A DNA stretch of 64,000 nucleotides from Acidobacteriota bacterium (GCA_016178075.1 JACOUA010000329.1:3539-67538), one strand, 5' to 3'. Shown: positions 1,959 to 38,897, numbered from the stretch's first letter. Numbers and translations: made by a program. The notes: a model not told the origin generated them from the sequence alone.

Positions 1959-3001
1959 TGCCACCTCAAGACCCCGAACCCTGGGATTCGTTGCCTCCTG
2001 AATCTTCGAGCCACCGGAGCGTCGAGTCCGGCTGGGCCGGCGAGAAGTCCCTGTCCGGTTGGTCGACCTCGCCGCCGCAGCCGGCGGTTCCGTCGCGTTC
2101 GAGGGATCGCGTCTGGTTGCACGTGCTGCTTTTCTGCCTGACCGCGATCACCACCACCTTTGTAGGCGGCCTCCACTACTCAGCCTTCCTGCAGGATTTT
2201 CGGAGTGTCGCGCCCCTCGTGCCGGCCACGCGCCAGCTGATGCTGAAGGGCCTTTGGTACTCGGCGACGATTCTGGGCATCCTCGGCACGCACGAGATGG
2301 GTCACTACCTCGCCTGCCGCTACTACGGCGTCAACGCGTCGCTCCCGTACTTTCTTCCCGCGCCGATCGCGCTGACGGGTACGCTGGGCGCGTTTATCCG
2401 GATCCGGCAGCCGATTCGCAGCAAGCGGACGTTGTTCGACATTGGCGTCGCCGGACCGATCGCGGGGTTTCTCGTCGCAGTGCCCGCGCTGTTCATCGGG
2501 CTGTCCTTGTCGCACGTCGCAAGGGTGCCGTCCGACTTCACGGGTCTCTCGCTGGGCGAGCCGCTGCTCTTTCAATGGGCAACGCGGCTGGTCTGGGGAA
2601 CGGTGCCCGAGGGGTATTCGGTGAATCTCCACCCGATGGCCTTCGCCGCGTGGTTCGGCCTGCTGGCGACGGCGCTCAACCTGTTTCCCCTCGGCCAGCT
2701 CGACGGCGGGCATGTCTCCTATGCGGTGCTGGGACGCCGCTCGACGATCGTCACGCTCGCGACGGTGATGGCGGCCATCCTGCTGACCGTCGTCTACTCA
2801 CTGAGCTGGCTGGTCTGGACGGTCCTGATGGTCGTGATGCTGTTTGCGTTCGGTCCGGCGCATCCACCGACGCCTGACGAGCACGTTCCGCTCGACCGCG
2901 TGCGGTTGTGGCTGGCCGTGTTCGCGCTCGTGATGTTCGTCGTCTGCTTCACGCCCGCGCCGGTCGAGCCGCTGGAGCTGCTCGAGCCGCCGAATCGATA
3001 A
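1958..3001 (+). CDS. Site-2 protease family (peptidase M50) membrane metalloprotease
   Basis: HEMGHY (HExxH) and NLFPLGQLDGGH motifs in a polytopic membrane protein. The true start is uncertain: TTG at 1958, with no internal ATG before the first TM segment. Confidence 0.85.
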   Translation: MPPQDPEPWDSLPPESSSHRSVESGWAGEKSLSGWSTSPPQPAVPSRSRDRVWLHVLLFCLTAITTTFVGGLHYSAFLQDFRSVAPLVPATRQLMLKGLWYSATILGILGTHEMGHYLACRYYGVNASLPYFLPAPIALTGTLGAFIRIRQPIRSKRTLFDIGVAGPIAGFLVAVPALFIGLSLSHVARVPSDFTGLSLGEPLLFQWATRLVWGTVPEGYSVNLHPMAFAAWFGLLATALNLFPLGQLDGGHVSYAVLGRRSTIVTLATVMAAILLTVVYSLSWLVWTVLMVVMLFAFGPAHPPTPDEHVPLDRVRLWLAVFALVMFVVCFTPAPVEPLELLEPPNR

Positions 3002-3050
3002 CCAAGTTCTCAGTTCACAGTTCTTGGTTTTCAGTGAAAACTGAAAACTT
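2999..3050. repeat. Heptamer-type hairpin (CAGTTYT family, short copy) between convergent M50 protease and priA
   Basis: AACCAAG..CTTGGTT and GTTTTCAG-tgaaaa-CTGAAAAC stems, followed by TTTT. Confidence 0.7.
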
Positions 3051-5976: not shown

Positions 5977-7218
5977 CTAGGACCTCGTCCCCGCGGCGGC
6001 TTGCGGTTTCTGAAGCATCGCTTCGACGCGATCAAGGATCGTCGCCGCGATCTCGCGCTTCGTCCGAAGGGCCGGCAGCTCGGCGCCCGCCCCGCCGCCT
6101 TCATCATCGGCAGCGATGAGCGCCACGGCATTCGCGTCGCCCTCGAACCCCGTGCCCTCGCGCGACACGTCGTTGGCGACGATGAGATCGATTTTCTTCC
6201 GGCGCAGCTTCTCGCGCGCTTTGGCGTCGACGTTCGAGGTTTCAGCGGCAAAGCCGACGAGCAGCGGACGCTCCCGTCCGCCTACCGCCCTCCACTGACC
6301 GAGATCCGCGAGCACGTCGGGCGTCCGCTCGAGCGCGAGCACCATGCCATCCGCCTGTTTTGCAATCTTCTCCGCCTCGCTGTGCCGCGGCGCGTAGTCG
6401 GCGACCGCCGCCGCCATGATGACGACCTCGACCGCGGGCGCGCGCTGCATCACCGCCCCATGCATCTCGGTCGCGCGTCTCACGCGCACCAGCTCGGACA
6501 CCTGAGGGGGAGCCAACGGCGTCGGCCCCATCACCAGCACCACATCGGCGCCGCGCGCGGTGGCCTCCGCGGCAAGGGCGAACCCCATCTTGCCGCTCGA
6601 CCGATTGCCGATGAAGCGCACGGGATCGAGGTCTTCGTAGGTGGGACCCGCGGTCACGAGGACCTTGCGGCCCGCGAGCGGTCCGCTCGGCCGCAGCATC
6701 GCCTCCGCGGCTTCGACGACCGCGTCGGGCTCGGCGAGCCGGCCCTTCCCAATCCAGCCGCACGCGAGATAGCCGGATCCCGGCTCGACGAACCGCACGC
6801 CGCGCGCCGACAGCGTCGCGATGTTCCGCTTGACCGCCTCGTGCTCGAGCATATTCGTGTTCATGGCCGGGGCCATCAACACCGGCGCTCTGATGGCCAG
6901 ATACAGCGAGGACAGGAAATCGTCTGCAATGCCGTTCGCGAACTTGCCGATCACGTTCGCCGTCGCGGGCGCGACGACGAGCAGGCTCGCCGCCGTCGCC
7001 AGCGAGATGTGTTCGATGTCCGCGTTAGCTCCCTCGGCGAACTGGCTCGTAATGACGCGCCTCCGGGTGATCGCCTCGAAGGTAAGCGGCCCGACGAACT
7101 TCCGGGCCGATCGCGTCATGATCGCCACGACGTCGTGGCCACGACTCTGCAGGCCGCGCGCGATCTCGACCGCCTTGTAGGCGCCGATCCCGCCGCAGAC
7201 GCCAAGGGCTACCAGCAT
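5977..7218 (-). CDS. coaBC: Bifunctional phosphopantothenoylcysteine decarboxylase / phosphopantothenate-cysteine ligase
   Basis: N-terminal flavoprotein domain (GVCGGIGAYKAVEIAR, PAMNTNM) plus a C-terminal CoaB domain. The ORF track extends to 7269, but those extra codons lie in a heptamer repeat. ATG at 7218 (MLVALGV..) fits homologue N-termini. Confidence 0.92.
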   Translation of the reverse strand: MLVALGVCGGIGAYKAVEIARGLQSRGHDVVAIMTRSARKFVGPLTFEAITRRRVITSQFAEGANADIEHISLATAASLLVVAPATANVIGKFANGIADDFLSSLYLAIRAPVLMAPAMNTNMLEHEAVKRNIATLSARGVRFVEPGSGYLACGWIGKGRLAEPDAVVEAAEAMLRPSGPLAGRKVLVTAGPTYEDLDPVRFIGNRSSGKMGFALAAEATARGADVVLVMGPTPLAPPQVSELVRVRRATEMHGAVMQRAPAVEVVIMAAAVADYAPRHSEAEKIAKQADGMVLALERTPDVLADLGQWRAVGGRERPLLVGFAAETSNVDAKAREKLRRKKIDLIVANDVSREGTGFEGDANAVALIAADDEGGGAGAELPALRTKREIAATILDRVEAMLQKPQAAAGTRS

Positions 7219-7231
7219 GATCAGAACATCG

Positions 7232-7319
7232 TCATTGCGGATTGCGGACTGCGGATTGATTCCCACCAATCAATACTCGACAATCAATCCGCATTCGGCA
7301 ACCTCCAATCCGCGATTCT
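7232..7319. repeat. Heptamer-type hairpin, word GCGGATT / AATCCGC, between coaBC start and rpoZ stop
   Basis: Left arm cattGCGGATTGCGGACTGCGGATTGATTccc. Right arm caATCAATCCGCATTCGGCAACCTCCAATCCGCgattc. Confidence 0.75.
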
Positions 7320-8323: not shown

Positions 8324-9206
8324 TCTGGACCTGTTCCCTCATCTTCTCGAGCTCGGCTTTGGCCGCGACGATGAGCTCCGACACCTGAAGGCCGTCGGCC
8401 TTCGAGCCCATGGTGTTGACCTCGCGGTTCATCTCCTGCAGCAGGAAGTCGAGCTTGCGTCCGCAGGGCTCGGCACTTTCACTCAGGATACCCCATTGCC
8501 CGATGTGACCGCGAAACCGCACGACCTCCTCGCTGATGTCCGAGCGGGCGGCGGTTCTGACGATCTCCTGCGCCACGGCGGCCGGCTCCAACTGGAACTC
8601 GCTGGTCAATTCGCGCACGCGTTCGCCCAGCCGGGCGATCAAGGCGGCCTCGCCGTCCTTGGCCGCGCGCGCAATCCCATCGACCATCTCAGCCACGGCC
8701 GCGCGGCGTCGATTCAGGTCCTGGGCGAGGAACTCGCCTTCCCGCGTTCGCATCGCGTCCAGCGCCACCAGCGCCTCTTCGATCGCCTTCAACGCCATGC
8801 TGGCGACATGCGCCGCCAGAGCCGGATCCTGGTCGAGCGACTGCTCCTTGATCGTGAACGCTTGTGGAAACCGCAGCAGGTCGCCTGGAGTCAACGCGCC
8901 CTGAAGGAGCCCGCGGTCCCGAGCCTGGCCTAGCGCAGTCCCGATCGCCGACAAGAACGCCTCGTTGATCTCGACCTGCACGGGCGGCGGCTGGCGCAGC
9001 TGCACCTGGACGGACAGCTCCACCCGCCCGCGGCCCGCATGCCGCTGGACCAGCGCGCGAAGCTGTGGCTCGAGCTCGGCGAGCGCCGTCGGCGTCCGCA
9101 GCTGCAGGTCGAGATAGCGATGGTTCACCGACCGGAGGGTGACGCCGATCGTGACGCGTTCGTCCTCGCGGGTCAGCGACGCGAACCCCGTCATGCTCTT
9201 GATCAT
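8313..9206 (-). CDS. yicC: YicC-family stress-induced protein
   Basis: 297 aa. The MIKSMTGFA N-terminus and length are typical of the YicC/TIGR00255 family. Overlaps gmk by 11 nt. Confidence 0.88.
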   Translation of the reverse strand: MIKSMTGFASLTREDERVTIGVTLRSVNHRYLDLQLRTPTALAELEPQLRALVQRHAGRGRVELSVQVQLRQPPPVQVEINEAFLSAIGTALGQARDRGLLQGALTPGDLLRFPQAFTIKEQSLDQDPALAAHVASMALKAIEEALVALDAMRTREGEFLAQDLNRRRAAVAEMVDGIARAAKDGEAALIARLGERVRELTSEFQLEPAAVAQEIVRTAARSDISEEVVRFRGHIGQWGILSESAEPCGRKLDFLLQEMNREVNTMGSKADGLQVSELIVAAKAELEKMREQVQNVE

Positions 9207-10957
9207 CGCGCGGGCGTCACCTCGTCTCGCTTCATCCCGAGAAGCTGCAGGGCATGCAGCCGCGCGTAGGCGCCCTCCGGCCGGGCCAACAGCTCGTCGT
9301 GCCGGCCCATCTCGACGATTTCGCCGGCCTCCAGGACGATGATGAGATCCGCCCGCCTGACCGTCGAGAGCCGGTGCGCGATGACGAACGAGGTGCGGTT
9401 CAGCATCAGGTTGGCGAGCGCGTCCTGCACCAGCAGCTCCGACTCGGTGTCGAGCGACGAGGTGGCCTCGTCGAGGATCAGAATCGGCGCGTTTCTGAGC
9501 AGCGCGCGCGCAATGGCGAGCCGCTGCCGCTGCCCTCCGGACAAGCGCTGCCCCCGCTCGGCAATTTTCGAGGCGTACCCGTTCGGCATCGCGCTGATGA
9601 ACTCGTGCGCGTGGGCGGCGCGGGCCGCCGCCTCGATCTCCACGATGCTGGCGCCCGGCGCCGCATACGCGATGTTATTCGCGACCGTGTCGTCGAACAG
9701 CACGGTTTCCTGGGTGACGAGCCCGATCTGCGATCGCAGCGACTTCAGGGTCACGCGCCGGATGTCGACGCCGTCGATCAGGATCGCACCGTCCGTCACG
9801 TCGTAGAACCGGGGCAGGAGGTTCACCAGGGTAGTCTTGCCGGCGCCGCTCTGGCCGACAATCGCGATCATCTGGCCCGCCTGCACCGTCAGGGTCACAT
9901 CCTTCAGAATCGGCCGGTGTCGAGCGTCGTCGTACCCGAACCGGACATGGCGAAACTCGATGGCGTCGGGTGGCTTCCTCAGCTCGATGGCGTCAGGCGC
10001 TTCAATGACCTCGCTGTGGGTGTCGAGCAGCTCGAAGATCCGTTCGGACGAGGCCACGGCCTGCTGGATGCTGGCGTTGACGCGGCTGAGCTTCTTGGCC
10101 GGGCCGTACATCAGAAAGAGCGCCGCGACAAACGACGCGAAGTCGCCCGTCGTGAGCCGTCCCGAGACGATTTCCCTGCTGCCGTACCAGAGCGCCGCCA
10201 CGATCCCGACCCCGCCCAGAAGCTCCATCAGCGGCGGGAGAATCGACAGGACCCGGGTGACCCTCATGTTGGCGCGGTACAGGCGGAACGCGGCGCGGCC
10301 GAACCGCTCCGCCTCCCGCGTCTCCGCCCCGAACGCCTTGACGATCCGATGGCCGGTGAACGCCTCCGCGCTCACATGCGACATGTGCTCGAGCGCTTCC
10401 TGGCTCAGCCGGGTCGTTCGCCGCAGCCGCTGACCCAGCCGCACCAGCGGATAGAGCACGAGCGGCGCGCCGGTCATGCAGACGAGCGCCAGCCCGTAAT
10501 CGTAGTAGAAGAGCAGCGCCGCGTACCCGGCCAGGGCGACCGACTCGCGAATCAGATCCGCAATCGTCTCCGAGACCGCCCGCTGGACCTGACCCACGTC
10601 GTTCGTCAGCCGCGACATCAGCTGACCGGTCGTCCGCTGTTTGAAGAACGTCGCGGACTGATCGAGGACATGGTGGTAGAGGAGATTGCGCAGATCGGTC
10701 ACAACCCGCTGGCCGACATCGGCCATCAGGTACTCGGAGAAGTACGACCCCAGGCCTTTGCAGACGTACGCCGCGATGATCGCCACTGCCGTGATCTGCA
10801 GGTCTTCCCGGCTCGGCAACACCTTGTCGATGATCGGCTTGATCAGATAGGCAAGCGCCGCCGAGCCGGCGGCGTAGAACAGCATCGCCACGAACGCCGC
10901 GGCGAGCCGGCCCCGATAGGGCGCGGCGTAGCGGAACAGGCGGAAGAGGGGCTGCAC
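9203..10957 (-). CDS. ABC exporter, fused permease/ATPase (MsbA-like lipid exporter family)
   Basis: Six-TM domain plus an NBD with Walker A GQSGAGKTT, signature LSGGQRQRLAIARAL and Walker B ILILDEATS. Confidence 0.9.
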   Translation of the reverse strand: MQPLFRLFRYAAPYRGRLAAAFVAMLFYAAGSAALAYLIKPIIDKVLPSREDLQITAVAIIAAYVCKGLGSYFSEYLMADVGQRVVTDLRNLLYHHVLDQSATFFKQRTTGQLMSRLTNDVGQVQRAVSETIADLIRESVALAGYAALLFYYDYGLALVCMTGAPLVLYPLVRLGQRLRRTTRLSQEALEHMSHVSAEAFTGHRIVKAFGAETREAERFGRAAFRLYRANMRVTRVLSILPPLMELLGGVGIVAALWYGSREIVSGRLTTGDFASFVAALFLMYGPAKKLSRVNASIQQAVASSERIFELLDTHSEVIEAPDAIELRKPPDAIEFRHVRFGYDDARHRPILKDVTLTVQAGQMIAIVGQSGAGKTTLVNLLPRFYDVTDGAILIDGVDIRRVTLKSLRSQIGLVTQETVLFDDTVANNIAYAAPGASIVEIEAAARAAHAHEFISAMPNGYASKIAERGQRLSGGQRQRLAIARALLRNAPILILDEATSSLDTESELLVQDALANLMLNRTSFVIAHRLSTVRRADLIIVLEAGEIVEMGRHDELLARPEGAYARLHALQLLGMKRDEVTPAR

Positions 10958-11072
10958 TACTCAGTCTTCAGTTTTCAGTTTTCAGTTTTCAGTTCTAAAC
11001 CTGCGACCTGAAGCGAAGGACGGGTCACCTTGTCAACTGATAACTGATAACTGAAAACTGATCACTACTCAG
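10957..11072. repeat. Heptamer-periodic inverted repeat, word CAGTTYT / ARAACTG
   Basis: Left arm CAGTCTTCAGTTTTCAGTTTTCAGTTTTCAGTTCT, ~35-nt spacer, right arm AACTGATAACTGATAACTGAAAACTGATCAC. Lies between the GT2 stop and the ABC exporter start. Confidence 0.85.
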
Positions 11073-11868
11073 TAAAACGATACTTGATGAGCACCCAGAG
11101 CGCGACCAGTCCGTCGTGCCAGGTGATTTTCTTCCCTTCCTCGTACCCCCGGCCGTCGTACGTGATCGGGACTTCGTACACCCGGTAGCCCCGCTTGAAC
11201 ACCTTCGCCGTCAACTCCGGCTCGATGCCGAAGCGCTGCTGCTTCAACTCCATCGATCGCAGCACGCTCGTGCGCATCACCTTGTAGCAGGTCTCCATGT
11301 CGGTCAGCATCGTGTTGTAGAGCAGGTTGGTCACGAGCGTCAGGAAGCGGTTGCCGAGGTAGTGACTGAAGAGAAAGACCCGGTGGCGGCCGAGAAAGCG
11401 CGAGCCGTACACGACGTCCGCGCGCCCCTGGCAGATGAGCTCGATGAGTTTCGGATACTCCTCGGGCGAGTATTCCAGATCCGCGTCCTGTACGACGACG
11501 ATATCGCCGGTCACGTCCTCGAAACCGCGGCGCAGGCCGGCGCCCTTCCCGGCGTTCTGCGGCTGCAGGATCAGCTTGAACCCCAGCTCACGGTTCAATC
11601 GCTGCAGGATATCGGGGGTGAGGTCGGTCGACGCATCGTCGACGACGATGAGCTCGATCCTGAGCGGCACCGCGACCACCCGGCGGATGATTGCCTCGAT
11701 CGTCTCCTGCTCGTTGAAGACGGGCATCACCACCGACAGCAGCGGATTGGTGAGCGTGCCTCGAAGGCCTGCCCTGAGCTCCGTTGAGGGGCCCGACCTG
11801 GGCTTCGTCGTCCCTCGGCTGGGTTCGGGACGACCCCGAGGGTCTCGAGGGGTCGAAGGGCCCGGCAT
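11065..11868 (-). CDS. Glycosyltransferase family 2 (polyprenol-phosphate sugar transferase-like) with a repeat-derived N-terminus
   Basis: LSVVMPVFNEQETIE, VDDASTD, VVQDADLEYSPEE. The ORF track runs to 12039, but ATG at 11868 overlaps the galE stop (TGATG). The first ~35 codons (..PRDPRGRPEPSRGTTKPRSG..) are a palindromic repeat. Confidence 0.85.
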   Translation of the reverse strand: MPGPSTPRDPRGRPEPSRGTTKPRSGPSTELRAGLRGTLTNPLLSVVMPVFNEQETIEAIIRRVVAVPLRIELIVVDDASTDLTPDILQRLNRELGFKLILQPQNAGKGAGLRRGFEDVTGDIVVVQDADLEYSPEEYPKLIELICQGRADVVYGSRFLGRHRVFLFSHYLGNRFLTLVTNLLYNTMLTDMETCYKVMRTSVLRSMELKQQRFGIEPELTAKVFKRGYRVYEVPITYDGRGYEEGKKITWHDGLVALWVLIKYRFTE

Positions 11869-15708: not shown

Positions 15709-15710
15709 AA

Positions 15711-15811
15711 CAGTTCTCAGTCATCAGTTCACAGTTCTCAGTTAAGGCGAGGACTGACAGACAACCGAGAACACCCTGAGAACTGATAACTGAAACCTGA
15801 TAACTACTGGT
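15711..15811. repeat. Heptamer-periodic inverted repeat, word CAGTTYT / ARAACTG
   Basis: CAGTTCTCAGTCATCAGTTCACAGTTCTCAGTT ... CTGAGAACTGATAACTGAAACCTGATAACTACTG, between two co-directional GT4 genes. Confidence 0.85.
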
Positions 15812-15814
15812 CTT

Positions 15815-17080
15815 GTGATGCACATCGCCATCGACGCCCGTGAGCTCTGTGGCCGGCCGACCGGCGTTGGGCGGTATCTGTCCCACCTGCTCACCGCGTG
15901 GGGAGATATGGCCGAAACACGGGGCCACCGCTTCACGTTGTACACGCCGGCGCCGATCGACATCCAGACCGTGGCCCCCCGGGCACGAGCGCTCGATCTC
16001 GTCGTGCAGGTCATCGGCGGCCACCCGGGAGCCATCTGGGAACAGATTCGTCTTGCTTCGGCGCTGCGTCGCGATCGTCCGGACGTCCTCTTCGCGCCGG
16101 CCTACACGTCACCGCTGCGGTGCGGCGTCCCGACGGTGTTGACGGTTCACGACATCTCGTTCGAGGCGCATCCGGAGTGGTATCGCTGGCGTGAAGGCAC
16201 GCGCCTGCGCTGGCTGACGCGCAGGGCCGCGCGGGCTGCTCGCCTGGTGCTGACGGATTCGGAGTTCTCGAAGCGCGAGCTCGTCGAGCGGATGGGCATC
16301 AGCGCCAACGCCATCCGCGTCATCCGTCTGGGGGTCAGCGAGCCACGCCCTTCGACCGTTCGACCCTTCGACAGGCTCGGCGTCGTCCCGAGCGCGGTCG
16401 AGGGAGGAGAGCCACAGGGTCGTCCCAAGCCCAGTCGGGGGACGACGGCGCCCGACGCAGGCCCGTCGACGACGCCCGGGGCACGCGCGTCGCAGGCGGA
16501 GCGCGAGCCGCTCGTGTTGTTCGTCGGATCGTTGTTCAACCGGCGGCGTCTCCCGGATCTGTTGAGCGCCTTTCGCGACCTGACTCGAACCCATCCGGGG
16601 GCCAGGCTCGAGATCGTCGGGGAAGACCGCACATACCCGCACCAGGATCTTGCGGCCCTCGCCGTGCGACTGGGGATCCCGGAGCGAGTGTCGCTGCGAT
16701 CGTATGTCAGCGACGAGGAGCTGGTGCGCCTCTACGAGCGAGCCAGCGTCTTTGGATTTCTGTCTGAGTACGAGGGCTTCGGTCTGACGCCGCTGGAAGC
16801 CCTCGCCGCGGGCGTGCCGATTGTGGTGCTCGACACGGCTGTCGCCCGAGAGCTGTATGGCGATGCGGCGGTCTACGTCGGGCGCGGCGACGTTGGCGGG
16901 ACCGCAGCGGCGCTCGCGCAACTGATATCGGACGCCGACGCGCGGCGGCGGCGGCTCGACCGCGCGGCGGTCGTGCTTCGCGGGTTCTCCTGGTCCGAGG
17001 CAGCGCGTCAGACGCTCGAGGCGCTCGAAGCGGCCCACAGTCCAAAGCCCCCGTCCGGACTGCCTCATCAAGCCTCATGA
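15815..17080 (+). CDS. Glycosyltransferase family 4 carrying an in-frame palindromic-repeat insertion in the interdomain linker
   Basis: N-domain MMHIAIDARELCGRPTGVGRY. C-domain LVLFVGSLFNRRRL, EGFGLTPLEALAAGVPIVV. Between them sits ~45 aa of repeat-encoded sequence (RPFDRLGVVPSAVEGGEPQGRPKPSRGTTAPDAGPSTTPGARAS). Confidence 0.87.
   Translation: MMHIAIDARELCGRPTGVGRYLSHLLTAWGDMAETRGHRFTLYTPAPIDIQTVAPRARALDLVVQVIGGHPGAIWEQIRLASALRRDRPDVLFAPAYTSPLRCGVPTVLTVHDISFEAHPEWYRWREGTRLRWLTRRAARAARLVLTDSEFSKRELVERMGISANAIRVIRLGVSEPRPSTVRPFDRLGVVPSAVEGGEPQGRPKPSRGTTAPDAGPSTTPGARASQAEREPLVLFVGSLFNRRRLPDLLSAFRDLTRTHPGARLEIVGEDRTYPHQDLAALAVRLGIPERVSLRSYVSDEELVRLYERASVFGFLSEYEGFGLTPLEALAAGVPIVVLDTAVARELYGDAAVYVGRGDVGGTAAALAQLISDADARRRRLDRAAVVLRGFSWSEAARQTLEALEAAHSPKPPSGLPHQAS
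16340..16500. repeat. GC-rich palindromic repeat (two modules) inside the GT4 coding sequence
   Basis: CCTTCGACaggCTCGGcgtcgtcCCGAGcgcgGTCGAGGG, followed by GTCGTCCCaagcccagtcggGGGACGAC (~16419-16446). Confidence 0.85.
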
Positions 17081-17928
17081 CCGACCTCGCCATCGTCATT
17101 GTCAGCTACCAGGCACGCGAGCACCTGGAACGCTGTCTCGCTTCGCTGGGGGCTGCTCCACCGCAGCGGTCGCACGAAATCGTGGTGGTGGACAACGCGT
17201 CGAGTGACGGAAGCGCCGACCGCGTCGCGGCCGAATGGCCGTCGGTGACGCTGATCCGGCTCCCGGACAACAGGGGGTTCGCCGCCGCGACCAACGTCGG
17301 CATTCGGCGGACGCGCAGTGAATTCGTGCTGCTCCTGAACAGCGACGCGATCGTGCCGTCAGGCGCACTCGATCGGCTCGTGGCCGCGCTCGAGCGACAC
17401 GCTGACGCCGCCGCGATCGGGCCGCGCCTCGTCGACGACACGGGGCAGGTTGAACTCTCGTTCGGCCGCATGTTCTCGCCGCTGAACGAGCTGCGGCAAA
17501 AGCTCCTCGTTCGGGCCTCTCGGTCGGGGATTCCGGGCGCACGGGCCTATGTGCAGCGACTCGTCTCGCGACCCCGGACGCCGGACTGGATCAGTGGGGC
17601 GTGCCTGCTCGTCCGCCGGGCCGACGCCGATCGAGCCGGCCTGCTCGACGAGCGCTTCTTTCTGTACGCGGAAGACGTGGACTTCTGCGCGCGGCTGCGC
17701 GCGCTCGGCCGCCTGATCCGCTTCGCGCCGGAGATCGACGTCGTGCACGCGCGCGGGCAGTCGGTCGCGTTCGACCCTCGCGCCGCCGAGGCGCACTATC
17801 GACGCAGCCAGCTCGCGTTCTACGCGAAGCACGCGCCGCGCTGGCTGCCATGGCTGCGGCTCTATCTCGCACTACGCGGAAGGCTCCCGCCGAGTCGGGA
17901 TTCGGGCGTCGGGATTCGGGATTCGTAG
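17077..17928 (+). CDS. Glycosyltransferase family 2
   Basis: LAIVIVSYQAREHLERCLASL, VVVDNASSDGS, LNSDA. ATGA overlap with the upstream GT4. The last ~12 codons and the stop lie in a heptamer repeat arm. Confidence 0.87.
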   Translation: MTDLAIVIVSYQAREHLERCLASLGAAPPQRSHEIVVVDNASSDGSADRVAAEWPSVTLIRLPDNRGFAAATNVGIRRTRSEFVLLLNSDAIVPSGALDRLVAALERHADAAAIGPRLVDDTGQVELSFGRMFSPLNELRQKLLVRASRSGIPGARAYVQRLVSRPRTPDWISGACLLVRRADADRAGLLDERFFLYAEDVDFCARLRALGRLIRFAPEIDVVHARGQSVAFDPRAAEAHYRRSQLAFYAKHAPRWLPWLRLYLALRGRLPPSRDSGVGIRDS

Positions 17929-17988
17929 GCGGCGTGTCCCGCTGCGTGGGGCCATCGAATCCCGAGCCCCGATCCCGAATCCCGAGCC
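17891..17988. repeat. Heptamer-periodic inverted repeat, word GGGATTC / GAATCCC
   Basis: GAGTCGGGATTCGGGCGTCGGGATTCGGGATTCG ... CGAATCCCGAGCCCCGATCCCGAATCCCGAGC. The left arm supplies the GT2 C-terminus (..DSGVGIRDS*). Confidence 0.85.
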
Positions 17989-18007
17989 CTTGTGATACGT
18001 TTCACCG

Positions 18008-21682: not shown

Positions 21683-22630
21683 GTGAAGCCCCGCATCGTC
21701 ATCACCGGCGCGGCCGGGTTCATCGGATCGCACCTGGCCCAGCGGCTGCTCGATCTGGATTACGCCGTCATCGGGATCGACAATCTGCTGACCGGCGACA
21801 TCCAGAACATCGCGCACCTGGTGAACCGGGACTTCCTCTTCATGAAGCACGACGTCACGAACTACATCTACATCGACGGGCACGTCGACTTCGTGCTGCA
21901 CTGGGCGAGCCCTGCGAGCCCCATCGACTATCTCGAGCTGCCGATTCCGACGCTCAAGGTCGGTGCGCTCGGTACCCACAAGGTGCTGGGGCTGGCAAAG
22001 GCGAAGGGCGCGAAGTTCGTGCTCGCCTCCACCTCGGAAGTCTACGGCGACCCGCTCGAGCACCCGCAAAAGGAAACGTATTGGGGGAACGTGAACCCCA
22101 TCGGGCCGCGCGGTGTCTACGACGAAGCCAAGCGGTTCGCCGAGGCGATGACGGTCGCCTATCACCGCTATCACGGGCTCGACACCAAGATCGCCCGGAT
22201 CTTCAACACCTACGGGCCTCGCATGCGGGTCAACGACGGGCGGGCCGTCCCGACCTTCATCTCTCAGGCGCTTCGCGACGAGGACCTCACGATTTTCGGC
22301 GACGGCACCCAGACGCGCAGCTTCTGCTACATCAGCGACCTGGTCGACGGCATCGTCCGCCTGATGCACTCGAGCGCCAACGATCCGATCAACATCGGAA
22401 ACCCGCACGAGATGACGATCGAGCAGATCGCCCGATCGATCCTGACCATGACGGGATCGCGCAGCCGCCTCGTTTATCGTCCCCTCCCCATGGACGATCC
22501 CAAAGTGAGACAGCCGGACATCACGAAGGCCCGCAGCATCCTGGGCTGGGAGCCGACGGTCGGCCTGGAGGAGGGTCTCACGAAGACGATCGCGTACTTC
22601 AGAACGAAGGCATCGGCGATTGGCGACTGA
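21683..22630 (+). CDS. UDP-glucuronate decarboxylase (UDP-xylose synthase) family SDR
   Basis: [27 protein letters not shown] (YxxxK), [20 protein letters not shown] start just after the upstream stop. Confidence 0.9.
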
Positions 22631-22644
22631 CAGCCGCCAATCGA
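22615..22644. repeat. 9-bp hairpin CGATTGGCG-N10-CGCCAATCG spanning the UXS stop (convergent with the pgsA-like gene)
   Basis: Read directly. Uses the same GATTGGC word as the 31084-31257 element. Confidence 0.6.
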
Positions 22645-22659
22645 CATTCGACAATTCTT

Positions 22660-23211
22660 CTATTCGCTCGCCAAGCGCGCCACCCGAATTGTGTAATCAA
22701 TCCCGGACACGAGTGTGATGGCGAGCGATCCGTACACGCACAACGCGATCACCCAGGACGATTCGTCCAGATAGTTGAAATACAGCGTTACCAGACAGGT
22801 CACGACGTACATCGCGGTCGCCGTTTTCCCGTAGATCGACGGGCGGAACGTTCGCGGGCCGACAGCGAGGTTGACGATCGCCACCGTCAGCACAATCAGC
22901 ACATCACGGCTGATGATGAGGACGGTCAGCCAGACCGGCAGACGGTTTCGCAGGCCGAGGCCCGGCAGCGTGAGGACCACAAAGGTGGTCACGAGGAGGA
23001 GCTTGTCGGCCATCGGATCGAGCCACGCGCCCAGATTCGTTTTCTGCCCGGACCGGCGCGCGATCACCCCATCGAGCGCGTCGGTCGACCCGGCGGCAAT
23101 CAGCACGATCAGCGCCCACCCGAGGTGGCCGTACACCACGAGGATCACGAAGGCCGGAATCAGCAGCACGCGCAGCAGGGTCAACTGGTTGGCGGTCGTG
23201 AGCGTCGTCAT
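22660..23211 (-). CDS. pgsA: CDP-alcohol phosphatidyltransferase (PgsA-like)
   Basis: DALDGVIARRSGQKTNLGAWLDPMADK matches the D-G-x2-A-R-x8-G-x3-D-x3-D motif. 183 aa, multi-TM. Confidence 0.85.
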   Translation of the reverse strand: MTTLTTANQLTLLRVLLIPAFVILVVYGHLGWALIVLIAAGSTDALDGVIARRSGQKTNLGAWLDPMADKLLLVTTFVVLTLPGLGLRNRLPVWLTVLIISRDVLIVLTVAIVNLAVGPRTFRPSIYGKTATAMYVVTCLVTLYFNYLDESSWVIALCVYGSLAITLVSGIDYTIRVARLASE

Positions 23212-23223
23212 ACGGGATGCCTG

Positions 23224-23308
23224 TAGTTTACAGTTCTCAGTTTTCAGTTTTCAGTTTTCAAGGCGCTGTTTCAACTGACGACTGACAACTGACAACTGAA
23301 AACTGTTC
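23224..23308. repeat. Heptamer-periodic inverted repeat, word CAGTTYT / ARAACTG
   Basis: ACAGTTCTCAGTTTTCAGTTTTCAGTTTTCA-aggcgctgtt-TCAACTGACGACTGACAACTGACAACTGAAAACTGT. The TCAGTT core pairs, with one mismatch per heptad. Confidence 0.88.
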
Positions 23309-23309
23309 T

Positions 23310-24689
23310 TTAGCGCGCGAGCTGTCGCAGGCGTTGCATGGCGGCGACGGCTTCGGCTCCTGTGACTGGCCGCGTGGGTTGGAAGGTCTCGCCGTCGAGG
23401 AGCGGCATCACACCCGAGGAGACCGCCAGCGCCGCGGCGGGATACACGAGGTTGCCGGGATTCACGTCGGCGATGCGGGGGCGGGCCTTGCGCCAGTCCG
23501 CCGAGAGGCGCGGCCGCCGAAGGGCCACGAGATTGAGCAGGCGGCTCACCGCCTGCGCCATCTCTCCACGGCGTACCACCGCGCCGGGCTGGAACGTGTG
23601 ATTCGGGTAGACCTCCATCACGCCCGCCGACACGACCGGGAGGATCCAGGTGGCGGCCCAGTGATTGCGCGTATCGGTCGCGACGACGGAGCCGGGCCGA
23701 CGCGCACTCTGGACGATGTCGGCGAGGTTGACACCGACGAGCGCCGCCAGCGCCCCCCGCGTGAGCTGCGGTGCGCTCTCAATCGCGCGATACTCCGCGG
23801 GCAACCCCGCGAGCGCCGCCTTCTCCCTGAGGCCTTCCAGCCGCCGGCCGACGTCGGTCGACGACTCGATGGCCATCGCCTTGGTATAGGCCGCCGCGGC
23901 CGCGTCGAGATCGTCCTTGAGCTCGTAGATCTCCCCCATCTGAACGAGCGAGCGGGCATCGCTCGGGTCCAGTTCGCTCGCGCGCCGCAAATGCTCGAGC
24001 GCCTGGTCGAGATCGTCGTCCGCGCGATCCTCGAGGCCGAGTTCTCGATAGAGGAACGCGCTCTCGGGCGAGGCCTCGATGGCTATCTTGTAAATCTGCC
24101 GGGCCTGATCGTGCCGCCCGGCCGCGGCCGCCTGCCGGGCGCTCGTGACGAGCGACTGCGTGTTCTGAAACCGCAGCACCTCGACTCGCCGGCGGACGTC
24201 GGCGAGAGCCGTGGCGTCGCCGGATTTCGCCAACGCCGCTTCGAACGAGTCGAGTGCTTCCGCGGGACGTCCCAGCGCCAGCAGCGCCTGGCCGCGCCCG
24301 ACGAGCGCCGGCACGTAATCGCTCGACGTCTTCAGCGCCTTCTCGAAGGTGCCCAGCGCCGGCTGTGCGCGATCGCCCGCGAGCTCGACGTAGCCAAGTC
24401 CCGCGATCGACGGGTAGAAGGTGGGTTGACGGCGGAGCGCCGCGCCAAATTCCTGCTCGGCGGTGCGGAGATCGCCGGCCTGAAGAAACTGCCAGCCGCG
24501 CTCGTGGCGCGAGGTCACGACGGCCGGCGCGTTGGCCGGCATGGATGGAAACACGAAGTCCGGATACTTCGGCGACGCGACGGTCGGCACGGCCGACAAG
24601 CGCTCGCGCGAGGCGCAGCCGGCGAGGTCGATCGCCGCCAGCGCCGCCAGCGCGCACGCCGCGCCGCGATGCCATCGGCCGGCCGTCAC
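23310..24689 (-). CDS. TPR-repeat lipoprotein with C-terminal SLH-like repeats
   Basis: Lipobox LAGCAS, several TPR-like A/L/Y-rich repeats, and two C-terminal F.P...V.R.E.A SLH-like segments. Confidence 0.7.
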   Translation of the reverse strand: MTAGRWHRGAACALAALAAIDLAGCASRERLSAVPTVASPKYPDFVFPSMPANAPAVVTSRHERGWQFLQAGDLRTAEQEFGAALRRQPTFYPSIAGLGYVELAGDRAQPALGTFEKALKTSSDYVPALVGRGQALLALGRPAEALDSFEAALAKSGDATALADVRRRVEVLRFQNTQSLVTSARQAAAAGRHDQARQIYKIAIEASPESAFLYRELGLEDRADDDLDQALEHLRRASELDPSDARSLVQMGEIYELKDDLDAAAAAYTKAMAIESSTDVGRRLEGLREKAALAGLPAEYRAIESAPQLTRGALAALVGVNLADIVQSARRPGSVVATDTRNHWAATWILPVVSAGVMEVYPNHTFQPGAVVRRGEMAQAVSRLLNLVALRRPRLSADWRKARPRIADVNPGNLVYPAAALAVSSGVMPLLDGETFQPTRPVTGAEAVAAMQRLRQLAR

Positions 24690-25978
24690 CGCGGCACCTC
24701 CGCGTGCACCGGCGCCTCGACCAGGCGCTCGAGGAGCCGCCGCGGAACGTCCGCCTCGATTTGTACCCGATCCTCCGTCAGCACGTGTTGCAGCACGCGG
24801 GCATGACGATAGAGCCGCGCGATCCGCGCCTGATCGTCCGGATCATGGCTGTTGAAGACGAGCGTGACGCGCTTGGTATCGAGGGCCAGTCGAGACGCCA
24901 TCGTATCGATGAGCTCCTGATGGCTCTCGAAGCGGTCTGCCCGGATCGCGGAGATGAAGACCGCGTCGGGATGCGCACGCTCCAGCCGACCGAGCTCGTC
25001 GGCCGACACGAGATCACATTTGTTGAAGACCTCGAGCACCGGGACATCGGCCGCCTCCACCTCCACCAACACGCGCGTGACCGCCTTCATTTGCCGGCCG
25101 ACCTCCGGACTCGACGCGTCGACGACGTGCAGGAGCAGATCGGCGCCCTTCACCTCTTCGAGCGTGGCCCTGAAGGCGGCGACGAGCGTGTGCGGCAGGC
25201 GATCGATGAAGCCGACCGTGTCGGACACGAGCAGCTCCCGGTTGTCCGGGAGCCGCACCCGACGGACCAGCGGATCGAGCGTGACGAACATGGCGTTGGA
25301 CGCGTCCGCCTGCTGACCGGTCAGGGCGTTGAACAGCGTGGTCTTGCCGGCGTTGGTGTATCCGACGAGCGCGACCGTCGGGACCGCCGCTCGGTGCCGC
25401 CGGTCGCGGAGCTGGGAACGTCTCGAGCGGACCTGATCGATGGCGCGGGCCACTGCGCCGATGCGCTGCCGAATCCGCCGGCGGTCGGTTTCGAGCTTCG
25501 TCTCGCCGGGTCCCCGGGTCCCGATCCCGCCGCCCAGGCGTGACAACGCCGCGCCGGCGCCGACCAGGCGCGGCAGCAGGTACCGGAGCTGCGCCAGCTC
25601 CACCTGCCACTGGCCCTCGCGCGTCCGCGCGCGCCTGGCGAAGATGTCGAGGATGAGCTGCGTCCGATCCAGGGTTTTTCGATCCAGCGCCGCTTCGACG
25701 TGACGAAGCTGCGCCGGCGTCAGCTCGTTGTTGAAGATCACGAGGTCCGCGCCGACTTCGTCGCAGGACACCGCCAGCTGCGCGATCTTGCCGCTGCCCA
25801 CAAACGTCGCCGGATCCGGCTTCGCGCGTTCCTGCAGGACCCTGAGGACCACCGCCGCGCCGGCCGCGCCGGCCAGCCCCGCCAGCTCGTCGAGCGACCG
25901 CTCGGCTTCCCACCGGTCGGCACCGAACAGCCCGACGAGCGCGGCGCGCTCCCGGTGAGCGGCCGAGTTCCTGCGCAT
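24686..25978 (-). CDS. hflX: GTPase HflX
   Basis: HflX N-domain plus G-domain VALVGYTNAGKTTLFNALTG, DTVGF, NKCD. Confidence 0.93.
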   Translation of the reverse strand: MRRNSAAHRERAALVGLFGADRWEAERSLDELAGLAGAAGAAVVLRVLQERAKPDPATFVGSGKIAQLAVSCDEVGADLVIFNNELTPAQLRHVEAALDRKTLDRTQLILDIFARRARTREGQWQVELAQLRYLLPRLVGAGAALSRLGGGIGTRGPGETKLETDRRRIRQRIGAVARAIDQVRSRRSQLRDRRHRAAVPTVALVGYTNAGKTTLFNALTGQQADASNAMFVTLDPLVRRVRLPDNRELLVSDTVGFIDRLPHTLVAAFRATLEEVKGADLLLHVVDASSPEVGRQMKAVTRVLVEVEAADVPVLEVFNKCDLVSADELGRLERAHPDAVFISAIRADRFESHQELIDTMASRLALDTKRVTLVFNSHDPDDQARIARLYRHARVLQHVLTEDRVQIEADVPRRLLERLVEAPVHAEVPR

Positions 25979-25979
25979 T

Positions 25980-26603
25980 TCACAGAAATTCTAGCACGCG
26001 CTCCCACGGCACCGCGCCGGCGCGCACGAGTCGTACGTCATCGCCGACGACATCGATGATGGTCGACGGCGCGCCCCCGGGTGTCGGCCCGGCGTCAACC
26101 ACGAGCGACACGAGCGGCAGATGCGCCATCACCTCGTCCGCGGTGATGGCCGCGGCGTGGCCGTGCGGGTTCGCGCTGGTCGCCGTCAGAGGGACCGACG
26201 CCAGGCGCGCGAGCGCACGCGCGACCTCATGATTCGGAACCCGAACCGCCACTCGTCCTCGCCCCCGATGCACGGCTGCGGCGATCGACGGCCAGGCGTC
26301 GACGATGAGCGTGAGCGGCCCGGGCCAGAAGGCCTCGGCGAGCCGGCGCGCGCGTGGCGACAAGCGGCCGACCTGCGCCTCGACTTGTGACCGATCGGCG
26401 GCGATCAGGGGAAGCGCCGACTCATGAGCGCGGCCCTTCACGCTGAACACCACCTCGACGGCGCCGGGGTTGTGCGCATCGGCGGCCAGCCCGTAGAGCG
26501 TGTCGGTCGGGAACGCGATGACGGCGCCGGACTTCAGCAGCGTCACCGCCTGTTGCAGGACGATCGGATCGGGCGAGACGGGATCGACGCGAAGGCGTTG
26601 CAT
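25980..26603 (-). CDS. tsaC: L-threonylcarbamoyladenylate synthase (YrdC/TsaC family)
   Basis: AFPTDTLYGLAADA, VFSVKGR, TSAN. The ORF-track start 26681 would overlap the MFS gene by 53 nt. ATG at 26603 (MQRLRV..) is preferred. Confidence 0.85.
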   Translation of the reverse strand: MQRLRVDPVSPDPIVLQQAVTLLKSGAVIAFPTDTLYGLAADAHNPGAVEVVFSVKGRAHESALPLIAADRSQVEAQVGRLSPRARRLAEAFWPGPLTLIVDAWPSIAAAVHRGRGRVAVRVPNHEVARALARLASVPLTATSANPHGHAAAITADEVMAHLPLVSLVVDAGPTPGGAPSTIIDVVGDDVRLVRAGAVPWERVLEFL

Positions 26604-26628
26604 GAGAAGTGAGAAGTCAGCATCCCGT

Positions 26629-27855
26629 TCAGACCTCATCGATGATAGTCGATCGGGCGGCCTCGACCGGGCGCGAGCCATCGTCTTCCCCCCTCATCGA
26701 CTTCCAGGCGCCCAGCGCGACGATGCCCAGCGCCGCAGCGTTCGTGAGGAGCGCCAGCCGTAAATCGCGGGCACTCAGCAACCCCGCAATCACCGGGCTG
26801 ATGGCCAGCGCCGCGAGGTACGCGCTCGTCAGCAGCCCGAAGCCCGCACCCTGCGCGCCCTCAGGGATCACCCTCCCGGCGGCCGTGTAGGCCGCCGTCA
26901 GCGCGAGGCCGATGCCGAATCCGAAGATCGCCATGCCAATCGCGAGCAGCGCCGCGTGGCTGGCTCCGGTGAAGAGCAGGAGTCCCAGCAAGCCGAGCCC
27001 GGCGCCGAAGGTGATGAGGGCTCGAGCCGAAAAGCGCCGCAGCGCGCGGCCGCACAGGGTGTTCCCAACCGCGCCGAGACCGGCGGCGATGGAGAACAGC
27101 GCCCCCGACAAGAGCGGGACCCGTTCCGGGTCGACGCCGCGGTGCGCCACGTAGAGCGGGAGGATCGGACCCAGGCTGCGATCGGCGAACTGGACACCGA
27201 AGATCACCGCCATCACGAGAAAGAAGTTCTGGAACGCCAACGCGCTTCGAAACGTCACGTGGCCGCCGGCAGCCGTGTCTCGTCCGCCGCGCGGCCGGCT
27301 GGGCTCCTCGTAGAGCAGCAGCATCAGGAAGAACCCGATCGCGTAGAAACCCGCCGTGACGAAGAACGCACGCCGCAGGCCCGCCATTTGGGCGACGAGG
27401 CCGCCAAGGACGGGACCGAGCGCGGGCCCGAGCCGCTGGGCCATCTGGACCCGGCCGATGGCGGACGCCATCCGATCCCTGGGCGCGGACTCCGCCGCCA
27501 TGGCGACCGCGAGGCCTCCATAGCCCGCGAAGAATCCGAGCGCGATTCTGAGCGCCAGCACGTGCCAGGGGCGCGTCACGAACGCCATCGCCGCCATGAT
27601 CACGATGAAGCTCACGAGCGAGCGCTCCACCATGAGCTTCCGGCCGAACCGATCGGCGACGCGTCCCCAGAACGGCGACAGCACCGCCGTGATGGCCGGC
27701 GTCACACCGAGGCAGAGCCCCGTCCACGTCGCGACCTCGCCGACGTCGGTGACCCCGAGCGTGGTGATGTAGAGCGGAAGGAACGGCATCACCAGCGTGA
27801 AGCCGGTGAAGCCCATGAAGCTGACCGCGGTGACGACGAACAGGTTGCGACGCAC
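26629..27855 (-). CDS. MFS transporter
   Basis: 408 aa, ~12 TM segments, GRVADRFGRK loop motif between TM2 and TM3. Confidence 0.88.
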   Translation of the reverse strand: MRRNLFVVTAVSFMGFTGFTLVMPFLPLYITTLGVTDVGEVATWTGLCLGVTPAITAVLSPFWGRVADRFGRKLMVERSLVSFIVIMAAMAFVTRPWHVLALRIALGFFAGYGGLAVAMAAESAPRDRMASAIGRVQMAQRLGPALGPVLGGLVAQMAGLRRAFFVTAGFYAIGFFLMLLLYEEPSRPRGGRDTAAGGHVTFRSALAFQNFFLVMAVIFGVQFADRSLGPILPLYVAHRGVDPERVPLLSGALFSIAAGLGAVGNTLCGRALRRFSARALITFGAGLGLLGLLLFTGASHAALLAIGMAIFGFGIGLALTAAYTAAGRVIPEGAQGAGFGLLTSAYLAALAISPVIAGLLSARDLRLALLTNAAALGIVALGAWKSMRGEDDGSRPVEAARSTIIDEV

Positions 27856-27984
27856 AAAAAGTTATCAGTGCACAGTTCTCAGTTTTCAGGTTCGGACCTC
27901 GCCTGCTGCGCCTCGGCGAAATCGCTTCGGCAGAGGCCGTGAGCTCCAAACTGCGAACTGTGAACTGACAACTGAAAACTTTCT
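27856..27984. repeat. Heptamer-periodic inverted repeat, word CAGTTYT / ARAACTG; probable intrinsic terminator of glpX on the minus strand
   Basis: AAAAAGTTATCAGTGCACAGTTCTCAGTTTTCAG ... ACTGCGAACTGTGAACTGACAACTGAAAACTTT. On the minus strand the hairpin is followed by TTTTT. Confidence 0.85.
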
Positions 27985-28972: not shown

Positions 28973-29014
28973 AGGACTCTGGCAGGCGGAAGTCGAAAGT
29001 CTCCGTGTACGCGT

Positions 29015-30226: not shown

Positions 30227-30282
30227 GAGAGCGTCCTTGTATGAAATGCGCCTGAACCGGCGCGGATGAACGGGAAATCCTA

Positions 30283-31080: not shown

Positions 31081-31083
31081 GAG

Positions 31084-31257
31084 AATTGACGATTGGCGAT
31101 TGGAGATTGACGATTGATTGTTGATTGGCGAATGGGCGGAATTGCCAGGAACGAAGGACGATTGAGAGCAATTCCGATCAGGCGTCCTTGATTCGTCAAT
31201 TCCGCGCCATCGTCAATCGCCAATCAATCCTCAATCGTCACTCGCCAATCGTCAATG
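31084..31257. repeat. ~175-nt nested hairpin, heptamer word GATTGRC / GYCAATC
   Basis: Left arm ATTGACGATTGGCGATTGGAGATTGACGATTGATTGTTGATTGGCG. Right arm CGCCATCGTCAATCGCCAATCAATCCTCAATCGTCACTCGCCAATCGTCAAT. The centre holds CGGAATTG..CAATTCCG and AAGGACG..CGTCCTT sub-hairpins. Confidence 0.88.
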
Positions 31258-31261
31258 CAGA

Positions 31262-31960: not shown

Positions 31961-32011
31961 CTCGTCTCCTCGGCAGCCGGTCGGAGATCGGAAGAAGCCA
32001 CGCGTGGTCGA

Positions 32012-32569: not shown

Positions 32570-32662
32570 TCGTGACCGTCGTGTGATTCTAGAAGTCCCG
32601 CCCGAAGTTGTCTAGTGCCTTTTATTGCCGAGGGTTAGGGGCGATGCTATGATGCCGTCAGG

Positions 32663-36009: not shown

Positions 36010-36012
36010 TTC

Positions 36013-36116: not shown

Positions 36117-36119
36117 TCC

Positions 36120-36452: not shown

Positions 36453-36458
36453 GTCACC

Positions 36459-37973: not shown

Positions 37974-37998
37974 CAGTGATCGAGAATGATAACTGCTT

Positions 37999-38880: not shown

Positions 38881-38897
38881 CGAACAGAAAGCGCGCT

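Follow-up and report, generated by a model that had tools for sequence, protein, structure and literature searches.

RESULTS

Hairpins of tandem heptamers fill six gene spacers

We examined a stretch of 64,000 nucleotides (nt) from a soil Acidobacteriota bacterium (GCA_016178075.1, contig JACOUA010000329.1, positions 3539 to 67538; here called the window) in which several spacers between genes are occupied by long inverted repeats whose arms are themselves repetitive. Six of these elements, numbered 1 to 6, lie beside genes for an M50 peptidase, PriA, an ABC transporter, glycosyltransferases, a TPR/SLH protein and a CDP-alcohol phosphatidyltransferase, GlpX and an MFS transporter, and between a pair of convergent stop codons (Table 1). 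From this genome, the analysis covered the window and a 12.6-kb contig. An earlier note on this DNA had described, at these places, a left arm of (CAGTTNN)n, a unique center, and a right arm of (NNAACTG)n, and we found this build at six of six. Typically, an element consists of 4 to 5 heptads, a unique center of ~10 to 60 nt, and 4 to 5 complementary heptads; the centers differ among all six loci. The 3' arms read ATAACTGA, AAAACTGA, and ACAACTGA, i.e., a TAACTGA-like heptad in tandem. We are highly confident that the elements are convergently paired tandem heptanucleotide repeats, the hairpin form of the intergenic heptamers that are common in bacteria.

The heptad signal was far above that of shuffled sequence: the dimer pattern CAGTTNNCAGTT had 22 matches in the window, compared with 0.05 expected from shuffles. 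All of the plus-strand matches fell within left arms, all of the minus-strand matches fell within right arms, and every array of the AACTG word in the window was paired with an inverted partner. Arrays were located with Tandem Repeats Finder and by a self-similarity scan over periods of 4 to 14 nt. The scan returned 10, 15, 23, or 26 period-7 arrays, depending on the threshold, versus 0 to 12 arrays for the other periods from 4 to 13, and period 14 is a harmonic of 7. Period 7 is the only enriched repeat period in the window.

When both strands were folded as RNA, five loci each formed one long hairpin on either strand (z = -2.2 to -7.6). The sixth, element 1 (2999-3050), gave a weaker (z of -2.9 and -1.9), asymmetric fold that comprises an apex hairpin of 7 pairs and unpaired left heptads. 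The picture of 6-bp helices interrupted every 7 nt given in the earlier note fits elements 2 and 4 (10957-11072 and 23224-23308) but not the others; in element 6 (38898-39009), for example, the outer stem runs for 19 bp without interruption. The proposal that tandem arms tolerate 7-nt shifts of register agreed with the calculated folds, in that loss of one heptad from one arm was cheaper (0 to 6.4 kcal/mol) than deletion of 3 nt (5.5 to 9.7 kcal/mol). The note was also right to set the elements apart from CRISPR arrays (the period is 7, spacers are absent, and there are no 23- to 50-nt repeats with unique spacers) and from classical repetitive extragenic palindromes (REPs), given arms that are tandem heptads of several words and stem feet with no visible conserved tag.

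TABLE 1 Heptad elements of the window, their neighboring genes, and the arrays found at the glpX-MFS spacer of relatives (positions are those of the window unless a relative is named)
Feature	Position	Strand	Description
Element 1	2999-3050		Small, asymmetric; left heptads (A/C)AGTTNN at 3004-3035; right heptads AAAACTG/AAAACTT at 3037-3050; fills the 50-nt spacer from the M50 peptidase stop (+, 3001) to the priA stop (-, 3052)
(ATTGCGG)3-4	7228-7262		Unpaired; minus-strand CCGCAAT at or just upstream of the predicted start of gene 5977-7266
ABC-transporter gene	9203-10957	-	Starts with GTG inside the left flanking repeat of element 2
Element 2, left 11-nt direct repeat CACTACTCAGT	10955-10965		Holds the GTG start of the ABC-transporter gene (complement of 10955-10957)
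Element 2, 5' arm	10958-10996		TCAGTCT followed by four TCAGTT(T/C)
Element 2, center	10997-11032		Unique, G+C rich, with a small stem of its own
Element 2, 3' arm	11033-11062		Four (C/T/A)AACTGA
Element 2, right 11-nt direct repeat CACTACTCAGT	11063-11073		Holds the TAG stop (complement of 11065-11067) of the GT2 glycosyltransferase gene (-)
Element 3	15709-15808		Arms 15709-15743 and 15776-15808; from a GT4 glycosyltransferase stop (+, 15708) to the next GT4 glycosyltransferase start (+, 15815)
GGGATTC ... GAATCCC	17891-17990		Paired; left arm codes for the last ~12 codons of open reading frame 17077-17928
Element 4	23224-23307		Arms 23224-23259 and 23272-23307; from the TPR/SLH gene stop (-, 23310) to the CDP-alcohol phosphatidyltransferase gene start (-, 23211)
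Element 5	27857-27982		Arms 27857-27891 and 27947-27982; center 55 nt, G+C rich; stem foot at the glpX stop (27983-27985, -) and the MFS transporter GTG start (27853-27855, -)
ATTGACG ... CGTCAAT	31078-31258		Paired, 181 nt; identical in L001
GCTGTCA ... AGCTGAG (CAGCTNT family)	36013-36121		Paired
Element 6	38899-39007		Arms 38899-38933 and 38978-39007; outer 18 to 19 bp perfectly paired; between convergent stops at 38880 (+) and 39005 (-)
G(A/G)CTCA(C/T) ... (A/G)TGAGCC (GGCTCAT family)	49251-49347		Paired, looser
AGGCTNN ... NNAGCCT	54082-54180		Paired
AGAAGTG ... CACTTCT	54777-54860		Paired, nearly centerless; convergent genes with stops at 54774 (+) and 54850 (-)
GCTATCA ... AGCTGAG (CAGCTNT family)	57049-57177		Paired
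(CCCGAAT)5	61361-61413	+	Unpaired; adjoins the stop at 61361, upstream of the next plus-strand gene
(CAGAATC)3-4, relative L122	12252-12289		Unpaired
(CAGAATC)3-4, relative L123	12280-12322		Unpaired
(CAGAATC)3-4, relative L124	9311-9352		Unpaired

The same build with other words

The view that the window holds six loci of a single word family had to be abandoned. At least seven further spacers show the same build with other 7-base words, and two more arrays are unpaired, for a total of ~15 heptad elements in the 64-kb window. Stop codons were considered as a feature common to the words and rejected: TGA occurs in five of seven without following a consistent rule. It lies in the 3' arm of three families (CAGTT, CAGCT, and GGCTCAT) and in the 5' arm of two words (ATTGACG and AGAAGTG), and it is missing from AGGCTNN and GGGATTC.

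Three further observations concern these spacers. Tandem Repeats Finder gave an additional 21-nt period (three heptads) at 49296-49346, which suggests higher-order units inside that array. The open reading frame (ORF) at 17077-17928 runs into the GGGATTC array, suggesting that the array displaced the original stop codon. Finally, a nonheptad inverted repeat with arms of ~40 nt (AGGACCCGTCCCGGAATAAGTGTGCCATTCTGG...) spans a convergent spacer from stop to stop at 34879-35040; the long hairpins of this genome are therefore not confined to heptad arms.

Occurrence in other genomes

One pattern scan of 185,579 species genomes (CAGTTNNCAGTTNNCAGTT, 15 to 45 nt, AACTGNNAACTG) yielded at least 120 stretches with the CAGTT...AACTG hairpin pattern. 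Among the matches listed, Acidobacteriota contributed the most, and Planctomycetota, Bacteroidota, Cyanobacteria, Chloroflexota, Poribacteria, and some Proteobacteria and Actinobacteria were also represented; cultured carriers among them include Fischerella PCC 9431, Anabaena azotica FACHB-119, and Parabacteroides faecis JCM 18682. Since matches occur in cultured strains and in complete long-read chromosomes, an assembly artifact is ruled out. Period 7 was dominant in the matched loci as well (436 arrays, versus at most 50 for any other period), and the arms mostly comprised 4 to 5 heptads around a center with a median length of 20 nt. The hairpins were also seen on 37 viral or proviral contigs, so phage-like DNA carries them too. 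One of these, an IMG/VR contig (L125), has two full CAGTT...AACTG hairpins in tandem at 19-190 with ~20 nt between them.

The arms match as a whole and have a fixed polarity

In 93 parsed elements, the variable positions of the two arms paired at 66%, compared with 37% when the right arm was taken from another element. Position-specific covariation, which we considered as the source of this match, was rejected, since permuting the order of the heptads within an arm gave 68% versus 66%. The match is thus one between whole arms at the level of the element, and covariation of individual pairs is not shown. For other words in other genomes, neighboring period-7 arrays formed inverted pairs 52 times and direct pairs 14 times.

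Arm order is fixed. The viral contigs gave 37 stretches in CAGTT-first order and 1 in the reverse order, and this sole exception is the junction of the two tandem elements of L125, so that true reversals number ~0. Pairs that lay outside the selection by the seed pattern were CAGTT first in nine cases and reversed in none. Of 35 distinct other words, 29 had more G than C in the 5' arm (p = 1e-4), and those that departed from this were T rich. Unpaired arrays beside a stop codon had more G than C on the sense strand (47 versus 18), while those beside a start codon had more C than G (41 versus 19). The polarity can be stated simply: the G/T-rich strand of each arm runs 5' to 3' from the gene toward the middle of the spacer. 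An element with the reverse arm order would fold equally well, so pairing alone cannot account for this polarity.

Stop codons, start codons, and terminators

The stop-adjacency test and a gene map based on codon usage underlie the results on context. On this map, all arrays of the window lie in spacers, except those at 17891 (C-terminal codons of an ORF) and 7228 (touching a predicted N terminus). As stated in the earlier note, elements follow gene 3' ends in both convergent and codirectional contexts: they were present in three of five convergent spacers, 12 of 39 codirectional spacers, and none of six divergent spacers. The numbers behind the divergent class (0/6, versus 15/44 for the other spacers) are small. 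A fourth convergent spacer of the window holds a nonheptad hairpin that runs from stop to stop.

Arms adjoin stop codons closely. The stop codon of a long ORF lay -4 to +14 nt from an arm in 67 of 89 elements (75%), 13 of which had one on both sides; at random positions, a stop was that near at a frequency of 3.9% per side. In 20 of the 54 elements with a stop on one side only, the downstream start codon was -1 to +8 nt from the last AACTG core (e.g., AACTGATATG and AACTGAAATG). At such a short distance there is no space for a Shine-Dalgarno site. In other one-sided elements the start followed 10 to 35 nt later, several times with a visible GGAG-type Shine-Dalgarno motif. In the window, elements 2, 3, and 5 belong to the stop-hairpin-start type. 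A translational bypass over element 2, with its 11-nt direct repeats as take-off and landing sites, was considered and rejected from the sequence because the landing copy is again followed by TAG.

Intrinsic terminators are not a good description of the elements. Their stems are A+T rich, and only 14 of 178 strands had at least five T residues in the 8 nt past the stem, in keeping with the statement of the earlier note that only some elements are followed by a U-tract. Its hint at terminator function was not supported, given the lack of a U-tract and the fact that two of the elements (10957-11072 and 23224-23308) stand at junctions whose genes overlap or abut in relatives, where a strong terminator would be polar. 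Rfam gave no match at the gathering threshold; at E ≤ 1 there were generic hairpin matches to microRNA precursor models, far below that threshold. In the 20 kb from 22000 to 41999 of the window, we counted 8 consensus terminators, all inside genes, compared with 8.9 in shuffled sequence. In that region, the genome seems to use no canonical terminators.

Gain, loss, and retention in relatives

The closest named homologues come from metagenome-assembled genomes (MAGs) of Acidobacteria and Vicinamibacterales. One relative, contig JACPWL010000087.1 of MAG GCA_016197075.1 (L001), is 99.8% identical to the window and encodes the same GlpX protein. Element 5 is identical there, and element 4 is missing, its place being taken by a 13-nt spacer of unrelated sequence. 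In two other relatives, L122 and L124 (~87% protein identity to the window), the genes flanking element 4 overlap by 4 nt. We also observed that, between L001 11641-11661 and window 23211-23316, the codons at the end of the TPR gene and those at the beginning of the transferase gene differ as well. The junction as a whole was exchanged rather than just interrupted.

Other spacers tell of gain and replacement. At 62 orthologous junctions from metagenomes, the genes flanking element 2 have overlapping stop and start codons in 15 cases (e.g., GAGTGA) and a gap of at most 13 nt in 28 more. An exact match to the predicted empty site of element 2 was not found in metagenomes. The overlap or near abutment in relatives, together with the 11-nt duplication, indicates that element 2 is a derived insertion, the duplication having kept both gene ends intact. 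The spacer orthologous to that of the 181-nt ATTGACG element is 21 nt long in L122 to L124. Between glpX and the MFS gene, these relatives have three to four unpaired copies of CAGAATC, followed by AAGGTGG and the MFS start codon, i.e., a different word at the same site. In another lineage, an 80-nt heptad hairpin of the GGACACG type is present in one contig (L171, 2516-2640) and absent from another (L205, 1466-1510) whose flanks are 95% identical; its position is precisely the tip of the small palindrome CTCTCCACCAGTGGCGAG, which is intact in L205. The footprints of insertion thus vary between cases, and this speaks against one common mechanism of transposition. Direct repeats flanking 89 elements followed the null distribution, element 2 with its 11 nt being the only exception.

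Two cross-species orthologous pairs of elements were available. In both, the arms had hardly changed (one additional heptad and a few substitutions), the centers could not be aligned, and the flanks were 74 to 84% identical. The density of arrays in the window (23 per 64 kb) is ~3.7 times that in 80 relatives selected by protein (57 per 582 kb), and the latter seldom use the CAGTT word.

DISCUSSION

A known class of repeats in a new host and form

The elements are not U-tract terminators, transposable elements of the miniature inverted-repeat type (MITEs), REPs, CRISPR arrays, or members of a known RNA family. The earlier note did not recognize their architecture as a described class, and here it was mistaken: paired convergent heptamers are known from Xanthomonas and Geobacter, and the TAACTGA word has already been reported. 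With the repeats of those two genera, the window elements share tandem 7-nt units, convergent pairs on opposite strands, and intergenic placement with a bias toward ORF ends; with the TAACTGA repeats, elements 2, 3, and 5 share adjacency to a start codon without a Shine-Dalgarno site. What is new here is the occurrence of the repeat type in Acidobacteriota (a Vicinamibacterales-type host) and its hairpin form; the class itself was known.

Rehm et al. (2015, PLoS One, PMC4692102) described 70 to 75 convergent pairs of GGGAATC arrays in each of two Xanthomonas genomes, with a preference for four units, a location near the end of a neighboring ORF, and rare occurrence between divergent genes; the role of these heptamers, in their words, "remains to be elucidated." The repeats of Xanthomonas campestris and X. 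axonopodis resemble those described here in having tandem 7-nt units, ~4 per array and almost all intergenic, in pairs of arrays on opposite strands that converge with the G-rich word first near an ORF end, and in varying in length between related species. Even the word is nearly the same as the GGGATTC of the window (17891-17990 and 61361-61413). Unlike the Xanthomonas genomes, the window has several words in one genome and spacers that are filled exactly from stop to start. The Xanthomonas study centered on G-quadruplexes. CAGTTNN cannot form quadruplexes and yet shows the same preference for 4 to 5 units, so the quadruplex is not a general explanation.

MacGregor (2015, Front Microbiol, PMC4679880) reported intergenic direct repeats of TAACTGA in marine Beggiatoaceae, cyanobacteria, and Bacteroidetes, mostly a few nucleotides before start codons that lack a ribosome-binding site, and proposed translational regulation. 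These repeats share with our elements the heptad itself, 2 to 6 copies in forward orientation before start codons, the lack of a Shine-Dalgarno site, insertions and deletions in 7-nt steps, and a patchy distribution across phyla. They differ in that 169 direct sets were found versus one "indirect repeat," whereas the window arrays of this word all have an inverted partner and form a hairpin; the hosts reported did not include Acidobacteriota, Planctomycetota, or Chloroflexota. In Geobacter metallireducens, Aklujkar et al. (2009, BMC Microbiol, PMC2700814) found paired five-heptad sites of MTYCTGA on opposite strands and annotated them as putative global-regulator sites. These too have ~5 heptads per site, paired on opposite strands at variable distance, share the CTGA core, lie between genes of an operon (e.g., proB and proA), and are lacking in a sister species. 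In contrast with the present elements, they number eight pairs and were read as putative sites for IHF/HU-type proteins on DNA; polarity and codon adjacency were outside that study.

Other heptamers have been noted. Tandem heptamers were the most abundant intergenic repeats in the work of Mori et al. (2018, PMC6344855), who had "no clear clue" to their function, and a Nostoc preprint implicates heptamer repeats in the expression of recF and recO, leaving the mechanism unresolved. Heterocystous cyanobacteria have short tandemly repeated repetitive (STRR) heptamers, and these and the long simple sequence repeats surveyed by Mrazek (2007), both as cited in PMC4679880 and PMC4692102, share the intergenic bias toward period 7; the surveys take arrays singly and leave inverted pairing, polarity, and codon adjacency aside. 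The REP, BIME, and REPIN sequences are likewise intergenic hairpins of many copies at operon junctions and 3' ends and have been proposed to stabilize upstream mRNA. They differ in being palindromes of 20 to 40 nt with one family sequence and a GTAG/CGTC tag that are moved by RAYT proteins, whereas the window elements have internally repetitive arms, varied words, unique centers, and no conserved tag.

Proposed growth of repeats in place at gene boundaries

The best overall explanation, to which we give somewhat less than an even chance, is that the repeats grow in place and are retained, as hairpins, where genes meet. On the comparisons with relatives, the elements would have been built inside their spacers and would change in 7-nt steps. 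Slippage within arms, together with copying between arms via fold-back, is the likeliest cause of the likeness of the arms, and the hairpin may be retained because it is useful, or at least harmless, at a gene boundary.

A function for such a boundary hairpin can be proposed only tentatively. The transcript would fold into a long imperfect hairpin that starts a few nucleotides past the upstream stop codon and ends at the stop of a converging gene or 0 to 8 nt from the next start codon. It may shield or insulate the 3' end of the upstream message without termination of the U-tract type. Within operons, the foot of the stem would bring the stop codon and the next start codon together; the A/C-rich AACTGA arm would then serve as a leader without a Shine-Dalgarno site, and the ribosome finishing the upstream gene could open the stem foot, coupling translation of the two genes. 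The broader idea that hairpins of AACTGA heptads serve Shine-Dalgarno-free translational coupling across phyla is more speculative still, and we regard it as doubtful.

Several points weigh against repeats grown in place and kept as hairpins. The conservation of arms between orthologs rests on two pairs only, and the likeness of the arms within an element could stem from common origin alone. Hairpin formation leaves unexplained both the recurrence of AACTG across phyla and the fixed polarity in convergent contexts. The fold energy was without strand asymmetry, 31 elements having the more stable fold on the sense strand and 23 on the antisense strand (p = 0.27), so the G-U signature of selection on RNA is absent. 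Finally, the gene calls in the fetched loci follow crude ORF rules that are demonstrably noisy in G+C-rich DNA.

Alternative explanations

The strongest competitor, which we consider possible though not probable, is that the elements are a functionless by-product of mutation, in which polymerase slippage and fold-back copying make repeats that persist where they are harmless, beside gene ends. Such a process would fit the fast gain and loss between near-identical genomes, the different words at the same spacer in relatives, the ~3.7-fold higher density in this lineage, and the many unrelated words and lack of G-U strand asymmetry; a slippage hypothesis of this kind is attributed to Mrazek by the two studies that cite it (PMC4679880 and PMC4692102). 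It does not lead one to expect arms that stay nearly unchanged between species while the center is randomized and the flanks have fallen to 74 to 84% identity, nor an AACTG core that recurs in several phyla. Strict polarity, a narrow arm length of 4 to 5 heptads, and placement exactly at stop and start codons, as opposed to anywhere in the spacer, speak against it as well.

Alternatively, the arms may be protein-binding arrays with one heptad per subunit or domain, their inversion being secondary. The target could be DNA, as in the global-regulator or IHF/HU idea for Geobacter, or single-stranded RNA bound by a protein of the cold-shock-domain or S1 type, as suggested by MacGregor, and these published proposals count in its favor. 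Binding arrays would account for much that pairing does not demand: the core sequence itself, beyond its pairing, is kept across phyla and orthologs, polarity is fixed, and unpaired arrays exist with the same polarity. A cold-shock domain covers ~6 to 7 nt of single-stranded nucleic acid. We nevertheless judge this explanation improbable, as at least seven unrelated words with one build in a single genome would call for many proteins, a binding site does not demand that the variable positions match within an element, and in the window the elements are linked to no candidate protein.

Slightly less probable again is that the elements are bidirectional terminators consisting of a hairpin alone, without a U-tract, in a G+C-rich genome that lacks canonical ones. 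Adjoining stop codons, the filling of three of five convergent spacers and of a fourth by another long hairpin, canonical terminators no more frequent than chance, and the long 3'-end stems without U-rich tails reported in Actinobacteria (PMC13613805) would all suit such a role. The missing U-tract would not, and the arm order puts the A-rich arm, instead of a U-rich one, on the 3' side of the stem. Moreover, elements 2 and 4 are located at junctions that overlap or abut in relatives, and approximately one-third of codirectional cases have the next start codon no more than 8 nt from the last AACTG core; termination there would shut off the downstream gene.

The polarity might also be a footprint of how the elements were made, a thought that we consider very unlikely to be correct. 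The arm polarity resembles two telomere-like arrays fused head to head, as if a break in the spacer had been healed by repeated 7-nt extension of both 3' ends and rejoined through filler DNA; the tip of a small palindrome is one place where a break might occur. The hairpin at the tip of CTCTCCACCAGTGGCGAG, the 11-nt duplication at element 2, and the unique G+C-rich centers are consistent with break healing, and none of them is decisive. If true, it would mean an unrecognized repair or repeat-adding activity in bacteria.

The least credible alternative, MITE- or REPIN-like miniature mobile elements acted on in trans by a transposase, would explain the presence/absence polymorphism, the 11-nt duplication at element 2, and the many copies of one word per genome, but it founders on the lack of regular target-site duplications (null-like in 89 elements, save element 2), on centers that are unique to each copy and cannot be aligned between orthologs, on varied insertion footprints, and on element 4, which replaces a spacer instead of interrupting it.

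Significance

In this one genome, roughly a quarter of the spacers of the window are made of heptamer repeats. Any explanation of them is constrained by four features: for many words, arrays come as inverted pairs as a rule; a fixed polarity places the G/T-rich arm first; the arms adjoin stop codons, and start codons without a Shine-Dalgarno site; and one core word, AACTG(A), extends from Acidobacteriota to Cyanobacteria and Bacteroidota. The preference for 4 to 5 units, earlier put down to G-quadruplexes, extends to a word that is unable to form them. For annotation, the elements account for many "empty" spacers and for odd C-terminal tails such as that of ORF 17077-17928. The cultured carriers make the coupling, stabilizer, and terminator hypotheses directly testable.

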